A DNA stretch of 64,000 nt from a virus. Lineage: Duplodnaviria > Caudoviricetes. The position numbers and the translations under genes are program-made. Of the stretch, positions 7,460 to 33,190 are shown piece after piece (within the stretch, counting starts at the first letter, position 1; every line of letters starts with the position of its first letter). Under the pieces are notes generated by a model, which searched no databases, had not been told where the DNA came from, and saw nothing but the letters and a program-made list of their open reading frames with translations. The stretch is from IMG/VR virus record IMGVR_UViG_3300037851_000620, positions 11,747-75,746 of that record, one strand, 5' to 3'.

Positions 7460-8842
7460 ATGCAATCGGTAAAATTGACCAATATTACGTTAATATTCAA
7501 GGTTGGGACTGACGATTCTGGTCATTGGGGACACTATGGTCGTCCAGGACTTGTTGGAGGCAGTCGTGCACGTCGTGGTCATCGTAGATCGGCTCCACCA
7601 ATAGAGACATATGCTATAGAATCTCAATGGATTTACGGTGATTATGAAGTTGGAGAATTGGCTCGTACAGCAGACGAGCTTAGAAGGCAAATTAGACGCG
7701 ATCGTGGCGAATTGATGTATCGATATATCAATTATCGTGGATATTCTCGTGAAGAAGCACGAGAACAAATTGCACAAGAGTTAGCATATTCTACTGAGCA
7801 TTTGCAAGACGCTCGTCGCGAACTCGAACGTAGGATAAATGAGCTAATCTATAGAGGTGAAGTTCCAAACGATCTTTGGTATGTCGACGGTGCTCCAGAC
7901 AATTATAACCAACTTTCATCTTTTGGACAGCCAGAAGGTTATAGCAATGCAGCAAGTCAGATGCTAGGAGATAGAGCACAAGAACCAACTCCTCAAATAG
8001 AACCAACTGTTGTGGCTCCTGCATCAGAAGCAGTACGAGCAAATGTTCAAAACAAGATGGTTGCTTTTATGCAGGATTGGCAATCAATTCCTATTGAAAT
8101 ATCCAATGACATTGTGCATGTAAACACAGCAGATTTTACACAAGAGGAAATAAGTCAATTAGAGCAAAAATTTGGCTTCAATTTGCAAGATATAAAGAAG
8201 ATGGTGTATCTTCCAAACACAACTGCAAATGTATCTATCAGAATAGAATCCGATTCGATGATAGGCATACGTGCATATATTTATCAGGCTGGTGAGAATG
8301 ATACTAATGTTGCTTATTTAAATTACGAGCTGATGGCATCTGAAGGCAAGCCAAATACATTTTATGCAGGATATTTGAAGATAGGAGATAGATTTAGAGA
8401 CAAGGATTATGGCACAACTCTTGTAACTCGTCATGCAATGATGGCAAAAATGGCGGGATACAAGACTATGGAATTCAGTGCTGACATTACAATTGGTAAA
8501 TATGCGTGGGCGAAAGAGGGTGCTAATTTCAAAGACAATGAAGGTCAATTGTTCCGTGCTAGGATGTTGATGAAGACATATGCTAGTGCAAAATTCGATG
8601 CTATTTATAGACAACCTGGTGTACGAGAAGCATTTATGGCATCGTTAAATAATTTACATTCCGCATACGATATTGCTACATTCAAATATCCTGGCATGAC
8701 AACATACGGTAGATACATCAGAAACGATGATGTATCTAGAGATATGCCTTTAGAGTTTGGAAAAGCATTCTTGTTAGACGACGATTCTAACTTTGGCAGT
8801 TGGCATGCTGTTGTAGATTTGACTAAACTCGGAGGATTTTGA
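7460..8842 (+). CDS. Leader-peptide family protein 2 with C-terminal GNAT-like domain
   Basis: Start moved to ATG 7460 (GGAGG at 7444). ITLIFK-VGTDDSGHWGHYGRPGLVGGS leader; FYAGYLKIGDRFRDKDYGT and ITIGKYAWAKEG GNAT-like motifs. Confidence 0.7.
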   Translation: MQSVKLTNITLIFKVGTDDSGHWGHYGRPGLVGGSRARRGHRRSAPPIETYAIESQWIYGDYEVGELARTADELRRQIRRDRGELMYRYINYRGYSREEAREQIAQELAYSTEHLQDARRELERRINELIYRGEVPNDLWYVDGAPDNYNQLSSFGQPEGYSNAASQMLGDRAQEPTPQIEPTVVAPASEAVRANVQNKMVAFMQDWQSIPIEISNDIVHVNTADFTQEEISQLEQKFGFNLQDIKKMVYLPNTTANVSIRIESDSMIGIRAYIYQAGENDTNVAYLNYELMASEGKPNTFYAGYLKIGDRFRDKDYGTTLVTRHAMMAKMAGYKTMEFSADITIGKYAWAKEGANFKDNEGQLFRARMLMKTYASAKFDAIYRQPGVREAFMASLNNLHSAYDIATFKYPGMTTYGRYIRNDDVSRDMPLEFGKAFLLDDDSNFGSWHAVVDLTKLGGF

Positions 8843-10179
8843 TGCTAATTATTTCCAAGCCAGAAGATGTGAATGGTGAGTCTGACAAAGACTTTTGGAA
8901 ATCTGTTTTAGAAACTGATGAACCACTCGGAATCTTTGCTGTCGCTGGTGCTGCGGCAACACAATTACAGTCAGTTGAAAAGGGAGGCAAAGGTTCTGGT
9001 CACTTTGGGCACAGAGGCAGACCAGGACAGATTGGAGGTTCTGTTGGAGGCATTCCTACATCCCTTGGAGAAAGCACGAAAATATATTCATTAGATGAGA
9101 TAAAATCTGAAGACCAAGAAGCATTAGCAAAAGCAAGAGAATATTATGCTCAACAAACACTTGCTATTGGCGGGAATTTTATGAATCCTGTCAATATAGT
9201 TCAGTGGGACAGAGTGCCTGGTGGGTGGAATACTTATCATCCGAAAGCGATTCACAATTTCAAAGTATATTTGTCAAAGATTTCTGGTGTTTTGTATGGA
9301 AATATTTCTGATGAGCTTGCTGCACGTTATGGAAGAGGTCTGTTGACAACAGATGAGGCTGTTCTAGATGCAAAACGGCAAAGAAAGACTGCCAAATTGC
9401 GATTCAAAGGTGGTAAACTCGCTGAGGACAATGTAGTCCCGGAATTTATTCCGTTTGAGCCTGAGATTGTTACAAAGAAGGCTAAACTCCGCTTGAAGGG
9501 AGGTGCCGGCTCTGGTTTCCATAATCACGCTGGTCGTCCAGGCGAAATAGGAGGCTCAGCATCCAGAGGCACTGTAAAAGATACAAGCTATTATGAAGAA
9601 AGGGATGCAGTCGGCGAATATTGGAGCAGATTGAACAGTTTCTTGCAAGGTTGGGCTGTAGCTGATGAAAAGGACAGTAATGTTACAGCAATACAAGCAG
9701 CAGCTTCTAGAGCGTTTGGAGTGTCACAAGAAGAGAACTTTGTGTATGAAAGATTTATGGAAAGAGTGCGTGTAGATCCTGCACAGTTTGAACAAGCAAT
9801 CAAGAATTTATACGATTATACGCAATCAAAATTGGCAAAAGATTATCCTGAAGGTTATATTGAAGTTTACCGTGCGTTGCATAACGTATACGATTATGAA
9901 CAATTTCCAACATCTGGTGAAGTGGATTTGAATGATGACATATTATCATCTTGGTCTAGGACGCCAGAAGGAGCAAAACAAGCAATTGAATATTGGGGGA
10001 CAAAGCAAAGCTATCGCCTTGTGAAAACACGAATTCCTACAAAGGACATTCTCATGTATCCAGGTTCTACGTGGGCAATGCGTAGACAGGTCGGTGAAGA
10101 GGAATTTGTTACAATCAATCGTGCTCCTCGCAAAGCAGAAGTCATCGAATCTGCATTAGATAAGAGAGATAAATCATGA
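8839..10179 (+). CDS. Leader-peptide family polyprotein 3 (two leaders) with C-terminal ADP-ribosyltransferase-like domain
   Basis: Leaders at 8983 and 9499, degenerate copy at 9391; R-S-E pattern VYRA (9871), LSSWS (9946), GEEEFV (10096). Confidence 0.72.
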   Translation: MMLIISKPEDVNGESDKDFWKSVLETDEPLGIFAVAGAAATQLQSVEKGGKGSGHFGHRGRPGQIGGSVGGIPTSLGESTKIYSLDEIKSEDQEALAKAREYYAQQTLAIGGNFMNPVNIVQWDRVPGGWNTYHPKAIHNFKVYLSKISGVLYGNISDELAARYGRGLLTTDEAVLDAKRQRKTAKLRFKGGKLAEDNVVPEFIPFEPEIVTKKAKLRLKGGAGSGFHNHAGRPGEIGGSASRGTVKDTSYYEERDAVGEYWSRLNSFLQGWAVADEKDSNVTAIQAAASRAFGVSQEENFVYERFMERVRVDPAQFEQAIKNLYDYTQSKLAKDYPEGYIEVYRALHNVYDYEQFPTSGEVDLNDDILSSWSRTPEGAKQAIEYWGTKQSYRLVKTRIPTKDILMYPGSTWAMRRQVGEEEFVTINRAPRKAEVIESALDKRDKS

Positions 10180-10859: not shown

Positions 10860-12716
10860 ATGCTAGAATCGAATGCTTCAACACCCACGTCAATTATAGA
10901 CCTGATCCGAAGTGTTTCCATACACGTCTCAGGAAACAATACGTATGCTAGATTCAGGAAAATGTATGGACACGACAGGATAGCATTCGTGTATGATTGC
11001 TTGCCGACATTTGCCAAAACGATGGCTCCATATCAAGAGGAAATATTAGGATACTTTGACAATGGTCATTACAGGGTTGCTGTAAGAGGTCCACACGGAT
11101 TAGGAAAGACGGCAATCGCAAGCATATTGGTTCACCATGGAGTTTTGACAGCAGAAACAGATGCCAAGGTTGCTACAACGGCATCAGCGTGGCGGCAGTT
11201 GGAAAAGTATCTATGGCCAGAGATTAAGAAATCCGCAAAGTTTCTAGAGTGGTCTGAGATAGGAAGAGGGATATATACAAGGGAAGAACTCCTCACAATG
11301 AGTATCAAGTTGAACCAAGGGATTGTAGAGGCATTTGCTGTAGCAAGCGATGACCATACTACAATTGAGGGTGCGCACGCAACACGAATGTTCTATGTTT
11401 TTGACGAAGCCAAGACGATACCAGGACCAACTTGGGACGCAGCAGAGGGTGCGTTTAGTAATGAAGGATTAACAATATCAGAATACGAAAGAGGAACTCC
11501 AGTAACAGGGTTAGAAAATAATTTATATAATAGTAATTCCCCTAATGGAGAAAGTAGTATAGGAAACGATTCCCGTAATGCCGTAGGTGCAGAGAACAAA
11601 AGTTCCAGTGCTGTGTATGCACGTGCTTCTGTAGAGGGTATTCAGAAGAGTGGTTCTAATAGTGTAGCAAACAAGTCCAAATCAGTCCTTCAGAACCCAC
11701 CCCTGGTCGTCCCTCATGGGCAAGGGATTGCTTCCACACGTACTCCTGCAAGCACGTTGCCAGCAACCATGTCTCCACCACGTGTCTCTGACATGATCGA
11801 GGATCACAGGCAATCACAAGTAATTAGCACTGCAAGCACTATCTATGAAGCATTAGCACTTGCAATCAGCACGCCTGGTGATCCAACAGGTCGGTTCTTT
11901 GATATACACATGCATAAGCCAGGGTATGAGGATTGGCATACTAGACACGTCACTCTAGAAGAAAGCATAGCAGCAGGACGTATTAGCAGGAAGTGGGCAG
12001 AGCAACGTGCTAGACAGTGGGGAGAAGAGAGTGCTGTGTATCAGAATCGTGTGCTTGGTGAGTTTGCTGATAACAGTGAGGATGGCATCATCCCTCGATC
12101 GTGGGTGTTACAAGCAAACGAGCGATGGCAAGCTAAACACAGGGCGGGCACACTAGACGATGATTCTCCTCGCATCCTTGGTGTAGACGTGGCACGTGGC
12201 GGCGAAGACAAAACGGTCATCGCTGTGAGGAACGGTGCGGCGGTCTCTAAAATTCACATATATTCGAAACTTGCGACCACGTCTGTCACAGGGCACGTGA
12301 AGAGTTTAGCGTCAGGCAGGAATATCCACATAGAGACTGACGGTGGTCTCGGTGCTGCGGTATATGATATGCTGAGGGAACAAGGGATTACAGGCTTGCG
12401 ACCGATTACCGTGTCCGGGAGCACGTTCTTCCGAGACAAGAGTAAGGAATTGACTTTTATCAATGTTCGTGCTGCTATGTGGTGGCACATGAGGGAATTA
12501 TTGGATCCGCACTATGGGAGCGATATATGCTTGCCACCACTGGAGGAATTGACTGCGGATTTGACGACACCACGGTGGGAGATAATGAAAGACGCCAGAG
12601 TTAAACTTGAATCAAAAGACGAAATTAGCAAGCGTTTGGGAAGAAGCACGGATTATGGAGACGCTGTTTGCTTGGCATTCTGGAATTCATCAACTGGTGG
12701 AGGAGTAGTGTTCTAA
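10860..12716 (+). CDS. terL: Terminase large subunit with ~125-aa low-complexity insertion
   Basis: Walker A VRGPHGLGKT, Walker B YVFDEA, coupling motif ISTPG, nuclease LGVDVARGGED and STDYGDA. Confidence 0.92.
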   Translation: MLESNASTPTSIIDLIRSVSIHVSGNNTYARFRKMYGHDRIAFVYDCLPTFAKTMAPYQEEILGYFDNGHYRVAVRGPHGLGKTAIASILVHHGVLTAETDAKVATTASAWRQLEKYLWPEIKKSAKFLEWSEIGRGIYTREELLTMSIKLNQGIVEAFAVASDDHTTIEGAHATRMFYVFDEAKTIPGPTWDAAEGAFSNEGLTISEYERGTPVTGLENNLYNSNSPNGESSIGNDSRNAVGAENKSSSAVYARASVEGIQKSGSNSVANKSKSVLQNPPLVVPHGQGIASTRTPASTLPATMSPPRVSDMIEDHRQSQVISTASTIYEALALAISTPGDPTGRFFDIHMHKPGYEDWHTRHVTLEESIAAGRISRKWAEQRARQWGEESAVYQNRVLGEFADNSEDGIIPRSWVLQANERWQAKHRAGTLDDDSPRILGVDVARGGEDKTVIAVRNGAAVSKIHIYSKLATTSVTGHVKSLASGRNIHIETDGGLGAAVYDMLREQGITGLRPITVSGSTFFRDKSKELTFINVRAAMWWHMRELLDPHYGSDICLPPLEELTADLTTPRWEIMKDARVKLESKDEISKRLGRSTDYGDAVCLAFWNSSTGGGVVF

Positions 12717-13081
12717 TGAACGATCTTCTTGAAAGACGTGCTAGATTCGTGTATGAAGGTGCAAGGCTTGCAAACATATCAACGAATGCTCCTATCAATC
12801 CTGTGCCATGGGAAGAACGCGAAGAGAGCTTCAAAGTACAGTTCTGTGAAGTGATTGACAGGCAAATGAGCGATGCACGATCGATGTCTCCAGAAGAACT
12901 GCATGGATCGTGGATGCAAGCATACTACACGATGGGATGGAAGTATGGCGAAGTGTATGATCGCGAGAACAAAATACACCCAGATCTTGTGCCATTTTCT
13001 ATGCTTCACAAACTTGAGCAAGACAAAGATGGGATTTTCATTGCACTATGTGAAATAGCACGGTTATGGATAACATCATGA
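12716..13081 (+). CDS. RyR-domain protein
   Basis: EELHGSWM...GWKYGEVYDRENKIHPDLVPF..L...EQDKD; start at TAATG overlap with terL. Confidence 0.8.
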   Translation: MNDLLERRARFVYEGARLANISTNAPINPVPWEEREESFKVQFCEVIDRQMSDARSMSPEELHGSWMQAYYTMGWKYGEVYDRENKIHPDLVPFSMLHKLEQDKDGIFIALCEIARLWITS

Positions 13082-13332
13082 AACTAATCATTCGTCACAA
13101 AGGTGGTCCAGGCTCTGGATTCTATGGACACGTTGGACGTCCAGGTCAGGTGGGAGGATCACAAGCGTCTAATACACAAACATATACAAAGCCATCAAAA
13201 GAGACACATGCTGGTCTTCTAGACACACGTAAAAATCCATTCGTGCCTGGAGCGTGGAGATCTTGGCTTCTGTGCGGATATTGTATACAGAAGCATCAAG
13301 AAGTGGGCAGGAAAAGGTTTGCAAAGCATTGA
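13078..13332 (+). CDS. Leader-peptide family protein 5, possibly frameshifted (continuation in another frame 13223-13423)
   Basis: MKLIIRHK-GGPGSGFYGHVGRPGQVGGS; ATGA-coupled start at 13078. Confidence 0.65.
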   Translation: MKLIIRHKGGPGSGFYGHVGRPGQVGGSQASNTQTYTKPSKETHAGLLDTRKNPFVPGAWRSWLLCGYCIQKHQEVGRKRFAKH

Positions 13333-14978: not shown

Positions 14979-15655
14979 AGATAAGACTGAAGATAAGACT
15001 GAAGATAAGACTGAAGGGAGGCTCAGGTTCTGGTCACTTTGATCATGCAGGCATTCCTGGGCATCAAGGTGGCAGTCTGCCAGGGAATTCAACTGCTGTT
15101 TCATATTCAGGTGTGTCGACAACTGCTACATCGCGTTCAAGAATGCCAGAAGCCAATAGAGTCATGCTACAAAATATTGCAAAACGTCTTGGATATAACA
15201 AGCCACTCGTTTTTAAAGACACTGTTAATCCAGGAGATTCCAACTTGATGGGCGATTATGATGTCGAAACAGGCGTCATAACAATATACGATAATGCTTG
15301 GAGAGAGGGAGTATCTAAACAGGCTGTTGCTCATGAAGTCACGCATGCACAGTATCACGATGTTCTTGATGCTGTGGTGAATGAAGATGCACGTGTTGAT
15401 AATTACACACGCTTTGTTCAAAATAATTGGGACTCATTGTACGAAGCTGGGTCTAAGATAGAATGGTCAGATTATGCAAAGTCCTTCTGGGACGATACGT
15501 CTCCAGACGACGAGATTGACCATGCATTAGGTGAAACATATGCTGAGCTTGCTAGATTAGAAAGCAAGCAAATAGACATTTCTGGCAAGTTCGGGGACTC
15601 TATTTTGATACAATCTTACAGGGAGTTCAAGAAAGCATATGAAAACATCAAGTAG
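14975..15655 (+). CDS. Leader-peptide family protein 6 with zincin metallopeptidase-like domain
   Basis: (KIRL)x3-K-GGSGSGHFDHAGIPGHQGGS; VAHEVTH at 15332; downstream ETYAE. Confidence 0.72.
   Translation: MKIRLKIRLKIRLKGGSGSGHFDHAGIPGHQGGSLPGNSTAVSYSGVSTTATSRSRMPEANRVMLQNIAKRLGYNKPLVFKDTVNPGDSNLMGDYDVETGVITIYDNAWREGVSKQAVAHEVTHAQYHDVLDAVVNEDARVDNYTRFVQNNWDSLYEAGSKIEWSDYAKSFWDDTSPDDEIDHALGETYAELARLESKQIDISGKFGDSILIQSYREFKKAYENIK
14978..15016 (+). repeat. In-frame tandem repeat (AAGATAAGACTG)x3 + AAG encoding KIRLKIRLKIRLK
   Basis: Exact 12-nt unit read directly from the sequence. Confidence 0.95.
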
Positions 15656-16760
15656 AGTTATGTATTTAGACGATGACTTCAATATAGTCTCAAAAGACAA
15701 GGCGACTATTTCCAAAGTCTGGAAGGCTGATGGAAGCATAGAATTTCGTGCTATGCGATCTACGAAAGTGCGTTTGAAGGGAGGCTCAGGCTCTGGGCAT
15801 TTCCAACATCGTGGTCGTCCAGGACAAGTTGGTGGAAGCACAGCAGATAATCAAGCTGCATATGAGGCACGATTAGCAGCAGCATTGAATGCTGAGGACA
15901 CTGATAAGTGGGAAGCTGACAAGGTAAAAGATTTGCTTGCAGATACGAGTCGTTGGGAGTTAGATACATCTTATGCTACAGAGCGTGGTGCTAATGGTAT
16001 CTCAAAGACTGCAAAAATCCATATCCAAGGTGATGGCTATGCTATCATCAAACAGCCGTATTATAAAGATCCGGCAATGCCAGGCGATGTGTCTGTATAT
16101 TCCACTGAGAATGATCCTTACAAAGAAGAAGATACTTATTTGTTAGCACAAGCTCTTGGTTGGGATGTCGTTCCTGTTGGTGCATATGCAAGTGATACAA
16201 AAAACATTGTTGGTGGAGGTTTAGTATCTGTTCAACAGTGGGTTGACGATGTGCAAAGTGTGCACAGTTATATGGGAAAACCACAAAAAGACAAAGACGT
16301 CGATCTTGAAAGATTTAGACAGGTTGCGTGGATCGATACTATTACAGGAAACTATGATCGTCATGGTGCTAATTTATTGATAAAAAGTGTGAATGGTGTT
16401 GCAACTCCTGTGGCTATCGACAATGGCATAGCGTGGGATATAAAACGTTACGATTATGATCGTAAGGTTCGAGACAGTGGTTTGTCATTCTACGACAATG
16501 TCATGAATTCGGACAGTCATTATGGCGATGTACTTTCGCAAACACAGGCGCATAACAATGAAGGAAGATTTCCATTAGGAAAACAGATATCTCGTAGACA
16601 ATACAATCAAGTGAAATCATTCTTAGACACTGATAGTCCAACTCGTAGACAGTTTATCTCGCATTATGGAGATGAATGGCTTGCGCGAGCAAAATTGCGT
16701 GTGGATGGTGTGCGAGAATCTGCAGACAGACGCCTGTTTGGATACTCGTGGACAGACTGA
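15639..16760 (+). CDS. Leader-peptide family protein 7 with PI3/PI4-kinase / HipA-like kinase domain
   Basis: VRLK-GGSGSGHFQHRGRPGQVGGS at 15780; EEDTYLLAQALGWDVVP, SVQQWV, GNYDRHGANLL, VAIDNG. Confidence 0.78.
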   Translation: MKTSSRVMYLDDDFNIVSKDKATISKVWKADGSIEFRAMRSTKVRLKGGSGSGHFQHRGRPGQVGGSTADNQAAYEARLAAALNAEDTDKWEADKVKDLLADTSRWELDTSYATERGANGISKTAKIHIQGDGYAIIKQPYYKDPAMPGDVSVYSTENDPYKEEDTYLLAQALGWDVVPVGAYASDTKNIVGGGLVSVQQWVDDVQSVHSYMGKPQKDKDVDLERFRQVAWIDTITGNYDRHGANLLIKSVNGVATPVAIDNGIAWDIKRYDYDRKVRDSGLSFYDNVMNSDSHYGDVLSQTQAHNNEGRFPLGKQISRRQYNQVKSFLDTDSPTRRQFISHYGDEWLARAKLRVDGVRESADRRLFGYSWTD

Positions 16761-27735: not shown

Positions 27736-29721
27736 ATGGGTCTGATGGATAGATTCAAGAAAGGATTCAATGCCTTTGTTTCTTCTTCATCTGGGGAAGA
27801 AGCTGCACGTCGATTCGACGTCATATTGGATCCAGCTGCAACTTCAGAGGCGATTGAGCAGTATATAGCACAAAAACAGAGCGAATCGAAACTAGACGTG
27901 CGCAAAACGTCTAACGATCTTGCTTTGTATTCAATATATGGCGCACTGAAGTCATTTTATAGGGATAGGTTATCCAAAATCCCTGATTATGAAGATCCAT
28001 CGCGGGATATTTATATCTCAGATATTTGGCGTCAAGAGCCAATCCTTGCTGGGGCTGTATATTCAATGACAGCCAAAATGACAGCAATGCGTTGGACTGT
28101 TACAGGGAAGCGCAAGCGTGCAATGGCTGCTGCCCAAATATTTGCAGAAGCTGCACATATGGATGGATACGATTGGGGAGGCTTCATTGCTTCCACCGCT
28201 GCCGATTTTTATACCACAAATCGTGGTGTGTTTTGGGAGACTCCTCGTATTGGAAATCCTCTTTATGGCAAACTTGCAGAGCTTGGTCATATTGATTCCC
28301 TTGCTTGTAATCTTACAGGGAATAGAGATTTCCCGATGCTATATGATTCAGAGACGGTTGGCCAGGTTATACGATTCAAGCGTGGCGAATATATCCATTT
28401 TGCCAGTTTACCGTCTCCTCGCGAACGGCATCTTGGACAAGGATTTTGCGCTGTTGACCGTGCCTATCGTGCTTTGAAGCTTCTGATAGCAGTTCATAAT
28501 TATGATGACGAGAAGTTGAATAATCTTCCTCCTGAAGGAATCGCTTCTGTTTCCGGTTTGACGATGGAAGAGTTCAACGACGCTGTTGCGCTTTGGAAAA
28601 ATCAGCGCAAGCAAGATAACAGTCTTACATTTCCTCAGGTGTTATGGCTGATAGGTTCGTCGCCAGGTGCTGAAGTGAATGTAAATATCAGTGGATTCAG
28701 TCAATTGCCTGAATCATTTGATAGAGAGCAGGTTGTAACTCACTATATTTCCACTCTTGCGCTTGATTTCGGTGTAGATGCTCGTGAATTCTGGCCAATT
28801 TCGAGCGGATCACTTGGCACAGCGTCTGAAAGTGAAATTCAGCACTTGAAAGCGAAGGGAAAAGGTCCAGGCGAATTTATTTCCACTGTCGAACGTCATC
28901 TGAATGGCGAGCTGGATGACGATACTCAATTTGCGTTTGACACTCAAGATATTGGCGAAGATATGACACGAGCGGCATACGCAAAGGCTATGATTGATGC
29001 CTATTATCCATTATTCACAGGCACTCCCGCTGGTAAGAGTAAAGCCAGTCCTGGTGGGAAGCCAAACACTGAAGCAACTCCTAATCCTGAAGAAATTCCT
29101 CTCAGCGATGCTTCTGGGCAAGCAATGTCTGCTGCAGGTCCAGCAGCTGGTGGTCCAGAACAGGTCATTTCCAAAGACGATCTGTTACGAATCCTTGCTG
29201 ATCATCATGTCATTCCAGAGTGGATGATGAATGATAAGCGAGAAATGGTGCTAGATACAAGCATTCATATCTCAAAAGAACTCGATCCTGACGAATATAC
29301 ATCATTTGTCTTTGAGAAAGGTATTCTAAAAGAGCATCGTTTGCCTCCGATAACAATCAATTCTCCTACAATCGGTGTAGATCGTGCTACTGGCAAAGAT
29401 AAGACGGTATATGCTTTGGTCAATAATGGAAAAGTTGTAGACACAAGCGAGGACTATACTGAAATTATGAAATCGCTTGATGAAGAGCGTCAACATGACA
29501 TGCTTCTGTTCTTGAAGCAAAAAGAAGAAGAGATTTTTGCTGGGATGCGCAAAATTGTTGGAAATCCGATACCAGAAGGTGAGGTCGTTCGTGGTACTCG
29601 CGTCACAGCAAACACACTGCGTGATGAGCTAGAGCGTTGGCGCAATCATCCGATTCTTGCTCCTTATGCGCTGACTGAAGAAGAATTGGCTAAAATGATT
29701 GAAGAAGGCAAGAAACAATAA
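27736..29721 (+). CDS. Portal protein
   Basis: Size and position before MuF/protease/capsid; EPILAGAV, portal-like helical pattern, long disordered C-terminus. Confidence 0.75.
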   Translation: MGLMDRFKKGFNAFVSSSSGEEAARRFDVILDPAATSEAIEQYIAQKQSESKLDVRKTSNDLALYSIYGALKSFYRDRLSKIPDYEDPSRDIYISDIWRQEPILAGAVYSMTAKMTAMRWTVTGKRKRAMAAAQIFAEAAHMDGYDWGGFIASTAADFYTTNRGVFWETPRIGNPLYGKLAELGHIDSLACNLTGNRDFPMLYDSETVGQVIRFKRGEYIHFASLPSPRERHLGQGFCAVDRAYRALKLLIAVHNYDDEKLNNLPPEGIASVSGLTMEEFNDAVALWKNQRKQDNSLTFPQVLWLIGSSPGAEVNVNISGFSQLPESFDREQVVTHYISTLALDFGVDAREFWPISSGSLGTASESEIQHLKAKGKGPGEFISTVERHLNGELDDDTQFAFDTQDIGEDMTRAAYAKAMIDAYYPLFTGTPAGKSKASPGGKPNTEATPNPEEIPLSDASGQAMSAAGPAAGGPEQVISKDDLLRILADHHVIPEWMMNDKREMVLDTSIHISKELDPDEYTSFVFEKGILKEHRLPPITINSPTIGVDRATGKDKTVYALVNNGKVVDTSEDYTEIMKSLDEERQHDMLLFLKQKEEEIFAGMRKIVGNPIPEGEVVRGTRVTANTLRDELERWRNHPILAPYALTEEELAKMIEEGKKQ

Positions 29722-31763
29722 TGGCTACCATTTCCATTAGATTCAAAGGTGGTTCAGGTTCTGGACATTTTAATCATGCTGGCAGACCTGGAGAAGTTGG
29801 TGGTTCTCTTTCTAGAAAAGCAGGTAATCAAGCACGTGCAGGAATGGTAAATAGGATACGCAATTTGCAACTTCTAGATGAGAATGATCCTAATTTCATG
29901 TCTAAAGTCGATGCAATTGTTGATGATTATAGGTTATCGAATAACGATCTTGGAAGGCTGTACAAAAGCGATATCCCGTTTGTATTGGAGGCGATTTCAA
30001 GATTCCCATCGTCTGATTTGCCTGTTGTGTGGGAGTCTTATAAATCAGATGACATGAAACAAAAACTAGAATCTATGGCTATCGAGGATGGGGAGGATAT
30101 CGATGCATATAAAAGTGCAGCTGGCATAGGAAGATTCAATGGAACAGATTACGAGATAAATATTCATACAGTATCAGATAATGAGTGGATAAGTGGATTA
30201 GATCTTCCTGATGTTATGCATAATAAAGCTGGAACAATGGTTGCGGTTGCTGCACATGAGTATGCACATTCTTTTGACCTATACTATAAATTTTCTGGAA
30301 CAAAAGCATGGGATGATGCAGTAAAATCTGATAAATTGTCTGTATCTGGATATGGAAGACGAAACAATCAAGAGGATTTCGCCGAATCTATGGCATTGAT
30401 GGCTATACGTCCTGCATTTTTCAAGAAAAGATATCCTGCAAGATATGATTCAATACGTTCAATGCTGGATTGGGATCCTGCAGTTCCAAACACTGTAAAT
30501 AAGGAATATGTTGGACAGGCATTTGATGAAGTTCCATACAGGATTTTTGTAGTAACAACATCTGGATATCATTTACAGTTATTATCGTCAAAAATCACAA
30601 AAGAAGTGCATTTCAAAGAATTGACTCAAGTTGATGAAGACATTACTGCTGTCATAGCATTCAACTTTGAAGGCATGTTTGATGCACTACTCGATAGATT
30701 TAAGCCAGAGGATGTTGTTAGAGATTCTCATATAACATTGCTGAATCTTGGCGAAATAGAAAGAATTCCTATTTCCAAAGAAAATTTGATGGTCATATTA
30801 GAAGGATTTGCAAAAAGTCATGCTATTATAGATGGCAAGATAACAGGTGTTGCAACATTCAGTACAAATCCTGATGAAGATGGAAAAGTTCCTATTGTAT
30901 TGTTATATGATAGTCCGCAACTTCCATTCTTTAGAGTAGATTTGCAACGCATATTGAGAGAATTAGGTATCGAATATCTTGAACAAAATCATGGATTTAT
31001 CCCTCATATTACATTAGCATATATCTATGAGCCGTATGTGGAAGTTACATTCAAACCAGAAATATTGTATATCGATTCTTTGTGGTTGTTTTGGGGAACT
31101 GAAAAGTATAGTTTTTCATTACAAGGTGTTGTCGTAGAAAAGCAGCTTCCAATTGATGACGATAGCAAGAAGCGATTGATAGAAATTCGTCGTAACATTT
31201 TCAATGACGATGTAGACAGACTTGCAGAACGTATGTATACAGGTGAGATGTCGCTTGGTGCTTGGGAAGAAACGATGAAGCGGTATATTCGAGAGCTGCA
31301 TACGTCTGTTGCAGCAATTGGAAAAGGTGGGTGGGATCAGATGACCTGGGCAGATTGGGGTCGTCTTGGTGCTGTCATGCGTGAACAATACAGATATCTT
31401 CATGGGTTTGCTGAAGCAATTGCTGAGAATCGGGAGACTATTTCCATTAATGCTATCAAAGCAAGAGCGCATTTGTATGGAACTGCTGCAGGGCATTCGG
31501 CATATCTTATAGAAGCAGGAGCTGATATTGCATCACAGCTTCCATGGTTGCCGAAAGATGGTTCTACTGAATGCCTTGTTGGTTGTAAATGTCAATGGGA
31601 TTTGAAGAAGGTTGGTGTAGAAAAGAATATGCAATTAGTTCAAGCAACTTGGAAATTAAATCCTGCTGAGCATTGCAAAACCTGTATTGATCGAAAAGGC
31701 TATGTAGTTGTAATACGTGTGCCGAAAGATGCAATCGTGCCGAATAAAATTGGTGGATATTAG
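29721..31763 (+). CDS. Leader-peptide family protein 8: zincin + 2H phosphoesterase + MuF-like minor head domain
   Basis: ISIRFK-GGSGSGHFNHAGRPGEVGGS; AHEYAH (30255) and VSGYG...EDFAES; two HITL motifs (30729, 31005); C-terminal PKDGSTECLVGCKC and AEHCKTC. Confidence 0.8.
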   Translation: MATISIRFKGGSGSGHFNHAGRPGEVGGSLSRKAGNQARAGMVNRIRNLQLLDENDPNFMSKVDAIVDDYRLSNNDLGRLYKSDIPFVLEAISRFPSSDLPVVWESYKSDDMKQKLESMAIEDGEDIDAYKSAAGIGRFNGTDYEINIHTVSDNEWISGLDLPDVMHNKAGTMVAVAAHEYAHSFDLYYKFSGTKAWDDAVKSDKLSVSGYGRRNNQEDFAESMALMAIRPAFFKKRYPARYDSIRSMLDWDPAVPNTVNKEYVGQAFDEVPYRIFVVTTSGYHLQLLSSKITKEVHFKELTQVDEDITAVIAFNFEGMFDALLDRFKPEDVVRDSHITLLNLGEIERIPISKENLMVILEGFAKSHAIIDGKITGVATFSTNPDEDGKVPIVLLYDSPQLPFFRVDLQRILRELGIEYLEQNHGFIPHITLAYIYEPYVEVTFKPEILYIDSLWLFWGTEKYSFSLQGVVVEKQLPIDDDSKKRLIEIRRNIFNDDVDRLAERMYTGEMSLGAWEETMKRYIRELHTSVAAIGKGGWDQMTWADWGRLGAVMREQYRYLHGFAEAIAENRETISINAIKARAHLYGTAAGHSAYLIEAGADIASQLPWLPKDGSTECLVGCKCQWDLKKVGVEKNMQLVQATWKLNPAEHCKTCIDRKGYVVVIRVPKDAIVPNKIGGY

Positions 31764-31789: not shown

Positions 31790-33190
31790 ATGCCTTGGGA
31801 TATAAAGATTGAAAACGGAAAGCATTGTGTATACAAAAAGACAACTGGCAAGATAATGCATTGCTATGACAATGAGAAGGATGCAAAAGATTATCTTGGC
31901 GCATTGTATGCAAATGTCAGCGAGAAGGAATTAAAAGAATTTCTTGCTGATAATATTTCCAATATTGCAACTTTCAAAGAAGCGGATGGTCGTTATAAAA
32001 TCGTTGCTGTGTCGACTGCTGCACTCAAAGATCGTGATGGGGAGACGTTTGATGTTGCCGCGATTGATTACGATGCTCGTGCTGCTGCAAAGCATGGTGA
32101 CTATCCTGAATTTCGCATGTTTCACAAGAAAGGTTTGAAGATTGGAAAAGTTGAGAAGATGAAGCGAGTCGGTATATTTGCTGTAGACGAAGGACATTCG
32201 TATACCGATCAATTTTCCTTAGAAGTTTGCGAAAAGATGTTGTCTACAAATGATGGAAAATGGCGCACGTCTCGTGGATTTTACGTTGTTGAAGCATCAG
32301 GGGATTGCCCTGTTTGTAAGGAATCATTGCTTATACAGACCAAGCATATGGTTGCAGGCTTCAGATGCCCGAGTTGTAATGCGGTGCACATGAGTAGTCG
32401 GGGAGTGCTTGGAGACATGCACTTTCGGAAGGCACGGACTTTTGATGTCACGGTGACTGATAATCCATCAGTGCCGTGGACAGGAGTTTCTGCATTCAAA
32501 GAAAATTCAAGTTTGGAGGATTTGGAAATGACAAAACAGCAGTTGGAGAAGAAACTTCTCGACGCTGGCATCAGCAAGGAAGCGATTGCGGCTCGTCTTG
32601 AAGGTTTGTCGGAAGAGCAGTTGAAAGAGTTCTCTGACATTCCGTTCGCAACCATGCTGAAAGAGTTTGGCAATGATGCTGGTGAAGAGGAAGAGTACGA
32701 CACGATTGCTCTTGACGAGGAATCGTTGAAGGAGTTTGGCAAGATTGTGCGTGCTGTCATTCGCGAAGAGATGGGCACAGTCATTAAGGAGCAGGTTGCG
32801 GCTGCGATCGAAGGTTTGGAAATCGATATTGCCGATCTTGGTGGTATGGAAGTCGATTTCAAAGAGGCTCCTCAATTTGTTGAGCTGAAAGAAGCAGTAG
32901 ATTCATTGACTGAAAAGGTTGAGAAGCTTCTGACTTCTGATGAGCAACGGCTGAAGGAGATGCTGGAAGAGACTCCTCGCGCTGGTAAGCTGCGCATTCG
33001 TCGCTACAAGAAAGCATCTCCACCCGGAGATGAAGAAGATGATGACGAAGACGATGATGAAATGGACGATGACGAAGACGTCTACGACAAGAAAACAGGT
33101 CATCGCCAGAAAGAATCTGGGCTGATCATCGTTGGTGCTGATGGCAAAACCGCGAAAAGCATGACCGAGTTCGTCCTCGGATCTGAATAA
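31790..33190 (+). CDS. Prohead protease (HK97/S78-like) fused to scaffold
   Basis: DRDGE, FRMFH, RTSRGF, DVTVTDNPSV resemble the HK97 protease fold; acidic coiled-coil C-terminus; directly upstream of capsid gene. Confidence 0.65.
   Translation: MPWDIKIENGKHCVYKKTTGKIMHCYDNEKDAKDYLGALYANVSEKELKEFLADNISNIATFKEADGRYKIVAVSTAALKDRDGETFDVAAIDYDARAAAKHGDYPEFRMFHKKGLKIGKVEKMKRVGIFAVDEGHSYTDQFSLEVCEKMLSTNDGKWRTSRGFYVVEASGDCPVCKESLLIQTKHMVAGFRCPSCNAVHMSSRGVLGDMHFRKARTFDVTVTDNPSVPWTGVSAFKENSSLEDLEMTKQQLEKKLLDAGISKEAIAARLEGLSEEQLKEFSDIPFATMLKEFGNDAGEEEEYDTIALDEESLKEFGKIVRAVIREEMGTVIKEQVAAAIEGLEIDIADLGGMEVDFKEAPQFVELKEAVDSLTEKVEKLLTSDEQRLKEMLEETPRAGKLRIRRYKKASPPGDEEDDDEDDDEMDDDEDVYDKKTGHRQKESGLIIVGADGKTAKSMTEFVLGSE

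Follow-up and report, generated by a model that had tools for sequence, protein, structure and literature searches.

The general concept of enzymes carried on a phage head protein and presumed to be delivered with it is already in the literature. Polyvalent proteins in which a 2H phosphoesterase domain is fused to MuF or to the portal have been described, such 2H domains have been predicted to act as RNases or as degraders of defence nucleotides, and zincins are a hub domain of these phage proteins (Iyer, Burroughs, Anand, de Souza and Aravind 2017, PMC5512222). MuF toxins carry metallopeptidase, ADP-ribosyltransferase (ART) and nuclease domains, and SPP1 gp7, which belongs to the MuF family, binds the portal and is found in 1-2 copies per capsid (Jamet et al. 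2017, PMC5576092). Here we describe P0001, a 680-amino-acid (aa) protein encoded in a 64,000-nucleotide (nt) stretch of DNA from a virus of the Caudoviricetes (IMG/VR record IMGVR_UViG_3300037851_000620, positions 11,747 to 75,746); the whole of this stretch is referred to as the window. The protein joins a short leader, a putative zincin, a 2H phosphoesterase domain and a C-terminal domain of the family phrog_24776, which we call the anchor.

The product of this gene is probably a polyvalent effector, a minor head protein associated with the virion. As in the proteins of Iyer et al., unrelated enzyme domains are mounted on what appears to be a virion structural domain encoded in the packaging and head module, and the putative zincin shares with theirs an Asp three residues after HExxH, a trait of the phage-type metallopeptidase (MPTase) clade (Iyer 2017, PMC5512222). 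It differs from them in its anchor, which is recognised by no MuF model, and in a KGG..GRPG..GGS leader, which a term search of PMC5512222 did not find. The gene also resembles those of MuF polymorphic toxins, SPP1 gp7 and Mu gpF in its post-portal position and in combining a conserved head domain with variable effectors, and departs from MuF toxins in that the cargo of its clade is mostly N-terminal and no profile similarity is supported. A sequence-only reading of the window had put forward a combination of 2H domain, zincin and MuF-like head protein with a role against defence nucleotides; the 2H-MuF and 2H-portal fusions, the zincin and the role were all published by Iyer et al. 2017 (PMC5512222). 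The novelty lies in the anchor family, which is uncharacterised, in the rearrangement of its Cys cluster and in the leader as a shared tag.

Domains of the 680-residue protein

The protein is encoded by a single open reading frame (ORF) that runs from an ATG at 29721 to a stop codon at 31761-31763, in a source record of 75,746 bp estimated to be 96% complete, of which the window presents one strand of a genome segment. A word-indexed search with the 680-aa protein returned 53 homologues at E<=1e-3, and 4,120 cluster representatives (50% identity clusters) match a profile of the C-terminal domain at E<=1e-3, so this is not a chance ORF. The ORF list and a script check bore out the ORF and every motif that the sequence-only reading had named, at the positions collected in Table 1.

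BLASTP comparison with 52 relatives divides the protein into four independently distributed parts, namely the leader (aa 3-31), an N-terminal domain (aa ~40-295), the 2H domain (aa ~300-470) and the C-terminal domain (aa 471-680), and the proposed four-part layout holds. The C-terminal domain is the sole part common to nearly all of these relatives, at 52-78% identity, and its partners vary among ART-PolyVal, DRAT, Peptidase_M90/ATLF, unknown domains and Vsr or intein insertions. The commonest architecture among the closest relatives is a 2H domain followed by the C-terminal domain, ~385 aa in all, with neither leader nor zincin. With a zincin, a 2H domain and a portal-adjacent anchor on one polypeptide in a head context, the protein agrees with the definition of polyvalent proteins given by Iyer et al. 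2017. To call it a polyprotein, as had been done, overstates the case, since its single leader is N-terminal and internal domain junctions carry zero copies.

The anchor belongs to phrog_24776, a family of uncharacterised function that is matched in the query and in 105 of 105 relatives; most of the 4,120 cluster representatives are stand-alone proteins of 200-220 aa. An AlphaFold2 (AF2) model of the anchor has a predicted local distance difference test score (pLDDT) of 91.5 and shows four long helices and, after them, a small beta element. The protein has five cysteines in all (C618, C622, C624, C652 and C655). Every one of them falls within its final 63 residues, and together with H651 they make this beta element Cys/His-rich and zinc-ribbon-like. 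In distant relatives the gene order is terminase, PHROG-recognised portal, stand-alone anchor and major head protein. In most phages the anchor is a gene of its own placed immediately behind that of the portal. It directly follows the portal gene in L011, L017 and S-CBS4, and in the close relatives and the window it follows a ~650-aa ORF that has no portal match.

Across the family the anchor is fused to ART-PolyVal, DRAT, M90/ATLF, ADPrib_exo_Tox, PBECR3 and PT-HINT domains. Some distant members carry ADPrib_exo_Tox, PBECR3, DRAT or PT-HINT at the C-terminus, which is the MuF-toxin layout, and in the relatives generally effectors are N-terminal, C-terminal or inserted inside the anchor. The "reversed domain order" to which the sequence-only reading drew attention is therefore no special trait of this protein. 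The cysteines are ordered AEHCxDC ... C..NCxC in distant members, and in the query clade C618..C622.C624 comes first and AEHC652..C655 later; by this comparison the CxxC knuckle is relocated to the other side of the Cys cluster in the query clade. Here, unlike in MuF, the knuckle follows the C...CxC motif rather than preceding it. P0042 and P0048 carry a Vsr-endonuclease/intein insertion at the anchor Cys cluster (query aa ~615-619), and in P0028, P0031 and P0040 a leader plus a ~225-aa module is inserted between query aa 634 and 640, in the small beta element.

The 2H domain is a well-supported assignment: on sequence grounds we regard it as a bona fide 2H enzyme of the LigT-like type. It has two H-x-T/S-x motifs and a profile match to known 2H enzymes. 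H337, T339, H429 and T431 are invariant in an alignment of 18 sequences, and a profile built from these 18 sequences matched Pyrococcus PH0099 (PDB 1vdx) at E 1.4e-9 over ~120 residues and ThpR at E 2.7e-5 in a search of the PDB. The HITL pair first noticed in the sequence is thus a genuine 2H signature. The HxT motifs lie ~92 residues apart, as in LigT and ThpR. Matches of the query 2H domain in PHROG are to "RNA ligase" families and are weak.

What sets this 2H domain apart from LigT and ThpR is its fusion to a phage head protein, in a genome where no RNA ligase partner is matched. No RNA_ligase or RtcB match was found in the genome, which argues against a phage-encoded RNA-repair pathway; a PF09511 search was uninformative, as its control also gave no match. 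Iyer et al. 2017 (PMC5512222) remark that the 2H domains in polyvalent proteins come without a paired ligase, and this genome agrees. Related 2H domains are fused to a portal in P0049 and to an S78_2 prohead protease in gp7 of Microbacterium phage ValentiniPuff, from which it appears that the 2H domain recurrently rides on head-assembly proteins. The ValentiniPuff gp7 2H domain is 28% identical to that of the query, and its gene adjoins the canonical MuF gene gp6.

ValentiniPuff gp7 (L001 5887-7059) is annotated as a "capsid maturation protease" and consists of a 2H domain (PF13563, above cut-off) and Peptidase_S78_2. Synechococcus phage S-CBS4 gp013 (L156 4989-5651), annotated as a "hypothetical protein", is a stand-alone anchor member whose gene overlaps the portal gene at the latter's end, with two glycosyltransferases and a methyltransferase coming after it. 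Neither of these cultured relatives has the full architecture, and their annotations ignore these domains. ValentiniPuff offers a culturable system for virion-borne 2H enzymes.

The N-terminal domain is probably a gluzincin, an assignment that is moderately supported. It has an HExxH helix and a downstream Glu ligand, and H179, E180, H183, D186, E218 and E222 are invariant in an alignment of five sequences. The region aligns with a segment of P0023 that scores above cut-off on Pfam ATLF and Peptidase_M90, so that HEYAH falls on HELAH and SVSGYG..NQEDFAESMA on AVSRYS..SREFFAESMV, and its structural neighbours in the ESM Atlas are ATLF/M90 clusters with template modelling (TM) scores of 0.51-0.53 (0.66 by target). 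The HExxHxxD motif and downstream E.FAE helix are shared with the gluzincins anthrax lethal factor and MtfA (Peptidase_M90); unlike these, the query matches neither Pfam model and has a single close homologue. No peptidase hidden Markov model (HMM), including ATLF (PF07737) and M90 (PF06167), matched the zincin region of the query. Of the lethal-factor-like zincin originally proposed, the HExxHxxD...E.FAE signature and the P0023 alignment stand, but an HMM match in the query does not, and the AF2 model is poor.

The leader tag and cassette shuffling

The leader consists of a hydrophobic strand followed by the consensus KGGxGSGxxGHxGRPGxxGGS, and the window holds 11 copies of it on otherwise unrelated ORFs. 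Six of the 11 form the N-termini of ORFs; in homologues the leader also lies between modules. The copies are near-identical as peptides despite being only ~60% identical as DNA, which indicates that the peptide itself is under selection and that the leader is more than a recombination scar or a DNA repeat of recent origin. A degenerate DNA pattern of the leader finds matches in at least 118 IMG/VR stretches, with up to nine co-oriented copies per 11 kb. The motif had no tblastn match in GenBank phages, was not found in the literature searched, and is not present in the distant clade of the anchor family.

Modules are shuffled as units of leader plus domain. P0003 fuses the putative zincin to a module that in the window is a separate tagged gene (15639-16760), P0028 fuses to the anchor the ART-like module of window gene 8839-10179, and the relative L003 has four small tagged genes between its anchor gene and its capsid genes. 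An 88-aa ORF in the window (13066-13332) consists of a full leader and a short tail, and may represent a cargo cassette that is truncated or decaying.

T4 Alt and the T4 internal proteins bear a capsid-targeting sequence, a short shared N-terminal peptide, and are loaded into the head and injected. By analogy, this capsid-targeting sequence would be the closest functional counterpart of the leader tag. Unlike it, the leader is unrelated in sequence, ~27 residues long, glycine-rich and also found internally between modules. More tentatively, and with the balance in our judgement tilted slightly against it, the KGGxGSGxxGHxGRPGxxGGS leader and the phrog_24776 anchor might together constitute a system for loading capsids that is undescribed and widespread among environmental phages. 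In it the anchor would be an unrecognised MuF-like portal partner and the leader a portable head-targeting or protease-recognition tag for at least 10 interchangeable cassettes (zincin, 2H, ART-like and kinase-like among them), with the 680-aa protein as the point where both routes are fused. A practical use of the leader could be as a tag that brings foreign proteins into capsids.

A proposed delivered head protein and its alternatives

In the mechanism that we propose, the core of the protein would be its conserved C-terminal 210 residues (phrog_24776), with their helical bundle and Cys-rich element, and by analogy with SPP1 gp7 and MuF this anchor would most likely be what docks the protein near the portal inside the procapsid. 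The anchor of this clade would have gained N-terminal cargo, first the LigT-like 2H domain and here also a leader-tagged zincin cassette. The whole protein would be packaged and would leave the capsid with the DNA into the host. There, as infection begins, the 2H domain could act on substrates of the 2',3'-cyclic-phosphate, 2'-5'-linked or cyclic-oligonucleotide type, that is, on host RNA ends or defence signals, and the zincin would either cleave proteins of the host or process its own carrier.

Several observations support this proposal: the domain identities (strongly for the 2H domain, moderately for the zincin), the anchor family, the portal-adjacent position in relatives and the shuffling of cassettes. 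The start codon of the gene shares bases with the TAA of the preceding 661-aa ORF, as TAATG, and we count this overlap with a portal-sized ORF, together with the synteny of the head module, in favour of a delivered head protein. Position in the head module makes virion delivery plausible.

Other observations weigh against it. We infer packaging, ejection, the substrates, any cleavage and enzyme activity itself. Taken alone, the query 2H domain scores under the curated cut-offs (Pfam PF13563 E 0.003, 18 bits against a cut-off of 27; NCBIfam TIGR02258 E 2e-4), where relatives score above the cut-off. The AF2 model of the zincin region, made from five sequences, had a pLDDT of 41.6 and was not used, and the sole close zincin homologue in a region-restricted search of a 5.8-billion-protein index is P0003, at 86%. 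The 661-aa ORF matched no portal model in PHROG, Pfam, NCBIfam or the PDB sequences, and hhalign of this ORF against two recognised portals gave no informative match. Tests of low power gave no statistically supported similarity of the anchor to MuF1 or to BPs gp4/VG15, and its fold matches in BFVD, to "minor capsid / head morphogenesis" proteins, are weak (E 2.7e-4 to 0.2, TM 0.3-0.58). With no supported similarity to MuF, the MuF analogy rests on position and architecture.

On these comparisons the anchor is best described as a positional and architectural analogue of MuF, its homology to MuF being unproven. That it nonetheless belongs to the MuF superfamily as a genuine but highly diverged member, amounting to a fifth MuF family, we consider as likely as not. 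It shares with MuF the post-portal position and the habit of carrying toxins. The distant anchor motif AEHCxDC...GW...LPxPG..C..NCxC resembles D.R.[RC]..[HC]..LDG...NCRC of MuF1 and ACGFC...HDxCxC of VG15, and hhalign pairs exactly these Cys motifs of anchor, MuF1 and VG15. The BFVD matches are enriched for the names "minor capsid protein" and "phage head morphogenesis domain", faint PF25310/VG15 matches occur in 2 of 105 anchor relatives (E 0.004), and a faint Atlas lead (score 0.84) runs from the anchor to a PF04233 cluster. Canonical MuF is also absent from six of six genomes carrying the phrog_24776 family, with no PF04233 gene found either here or in the five near-complete genomes related to this one, and phrog_24776 accordingly fills in these genomes the post-portal slot that MuF occupies elsewhere.

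Against membership, neither PF04233 nor TIGR01641 matched the query or its C-terminal domain at E<=1, and there was no PF04233 match in 114 anchor relatives (9 distant stand-alone proteins, and 105 further ones searched at E<=0.01). The MuF-like C-terminal domain of the sequence-only reading is replaced by phrog_24776 on this evidence. Alignment of the anchor by hhalign with an SPP1-gp7 alignment gave 1-11% probability with only the Cys motifs aligned, a test in which the control, MuF1 against VG15, failed too (3%); against 13 actinophage sequences of the BPs-gp4/VG15 type it gave 0.1-4%, again with only Cys motifs aligned and with the control failing equally. A Foldseek search with the anchor model, which had been suggested as a check, returned only generic helical bundles from PDB and VIA wide. 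We take the BPs gp4 family to be the MuF4 of Jamet on account of cluster G, to which both BPs and Angel, the MuF4 seed phage, belong. The N-terminus of Mycobacterium phage BPs gp4 (L025 3403-4602) matches PF25310 "VG15" at E 2e-33. GenBank names for genes of the BPs-gp4 type vary between MuF-like minor capsid protein, capsid maturation protease and hypothetical protein.

Acb1 itself is a small protein that stands alone and is not known to be packaged. Hobbs et al. 2022 (PMC9117128) describe T4 Acb1 as an anti-CBASS nuclease (CBASS, a system of antiphage signalling based on cyclic oligonucleotides) that is itself a 2H enzyme. The query 2H domain resembles it in superfamily, in being phage-encoded and in a possible counter-defence role. 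That it is an Acb1-like phosphodiesterase of cyclic oligonucleotides, directed against CBASS or type III CRISPR, we consider unlikely. A nucleotide-defence role was predicted for 2H domains fused to MuF or portal (Iyer 2017, PMC5512222), and P0050, a relative 29% identical, matches Pfam Acb1 at E 1e-5 with 25.7 bits, just under the cut-off of 27. However, the query has no Acb1 (PF23474) match at E<=1, and the 2H-family profile that found PH0099 matched Acb1 chains only marginally, at E 0.018-0.4, which leaves the 2',3'-cyclic phosphodiesterases of the LigT/ThpR type nearer to the profile by about 7 orders of magnitude. Moreover, the choice of substrate by a 2H enzyme cannot be told from its HxT motifs or sequence. 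Of the Acb1-like role first suggested, the 2H enzyme is retained, and cyclic oligonucleotides become only one of several possible substrates.

An improbable alternative is that the protein is an assembly factor whose 2H domain and zincin act late, undelivered, in the producing cell, in head maturation or late RNA metabolism; such a late-acting zincin might, for instance, strip off leader tags or process scaffold and cargo proteins. The gene does sit in the late structural block, autoproteolytic processing has been proposed as the chief role of zincins in polyvalent proteins (Iyer 2017, PMC5512222), in ValentiniPuff gp7 a prohead serine protease is joined to a related 2H domain, and no prohead protease was recognised by HMM in the head module of the window. 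But most relatives with leader and anchor lack a zincin, which rules it out as a general tag-processing protease, its sole close homologue in P0003 is joined to different cargo and not to the anchor, and the 466-aa ORF downstream, with its protease-like motif, is by motifs a better candidate for a maturation protease.

If the anchor of this proposed delivered head protein is indeed packaged, then phrog_24776, with its 4,120 clusters at 50% identity, would be a large unannotated addition to the carriers of injected effectors. Its fusions with ARTs, nucleases, peptidases and 2H domains, which number in the hundreds and are called "hypothetical", could then be understood as cargo that counters defences early on. 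Carried in the virion, a 2H enzyme would be at work before phage gene expression, when cyclic-nucleotide defences would need blunting.

Feature coordinates and neighbouring genes

Table 1. Positions in the window of the gene, its predicted domains, the leader copies and the upstream ORF.
Feature	Coordinates (nt)	Strand	Basis
Whole gene P0001, 680-aa multidomain head-module protein	29721..31763	+	ORF list, translation, homologues
Leader tag, aa 3-29: short hydrophobic strand (ISIRF) then KGGSGSGHFNHAGRPGEVGGS; KGGSGSG...GRPGEVGGS at aa 9-29 (nt 29745-29807)	29727..29807	+	motif repeated in window
Zincin-like metallopeptidase (probable), approx. aa 60-255: HEYAH aa 179-183 (nt 30255-30269), D186, SGYG 209-212 (VSGYG 208-212), EDFAE 218-222 (EDFAES 218-223)	29898..30485	+	
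2H phosphoesterase, approx. aa 303-470: HITL at aa 337 (nt 30729) and aa 429 (nt 31005)	30627..31130	+	
Conserved anchor domain, aa 471-680, family phrog_24776	31131..31760	+	AF2 model, phrog_24776 match
Leader copies, first base of GRPG..GG core	5416, 7538, 9016, 9532, 10233, 13135, 15050, 15813, 29781, 41934, 43188		
Upstream 661-aa ORF, portal-sized; syntenic with the ORF preceding the anchor gene in close relatives	27736..29721	+	synteny in L002-L009

The upstream ORF is kept at 50-54% identity in five relatives. In seven close relatives the order of genes is a ~650-aa ORF, the anchor gene, a ~470-aa ORF and a ~480-aa capsid-like ORF, and among these seven the length of the anchor gene product ranges from 221 to 701 aa. 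Searches of the PDB with the 490-aa ORF downstream gave nothing useful. The 466-aa ORF that lies directly downstream of the gene (31790-33190) has no HMM or PDB support, and hhalign of it against the ValentiniPuff S78_2 protease gave no match. By its motifs it looks like a fusion of prohead protease and scaffold: the N-terminal half is conserved, with VSTAAxKDRxGETF, conserved His and Ser residues and a CPxC..CPxC zinc ribbon, and the C-terminal half is acidic and coiled-coil-like.

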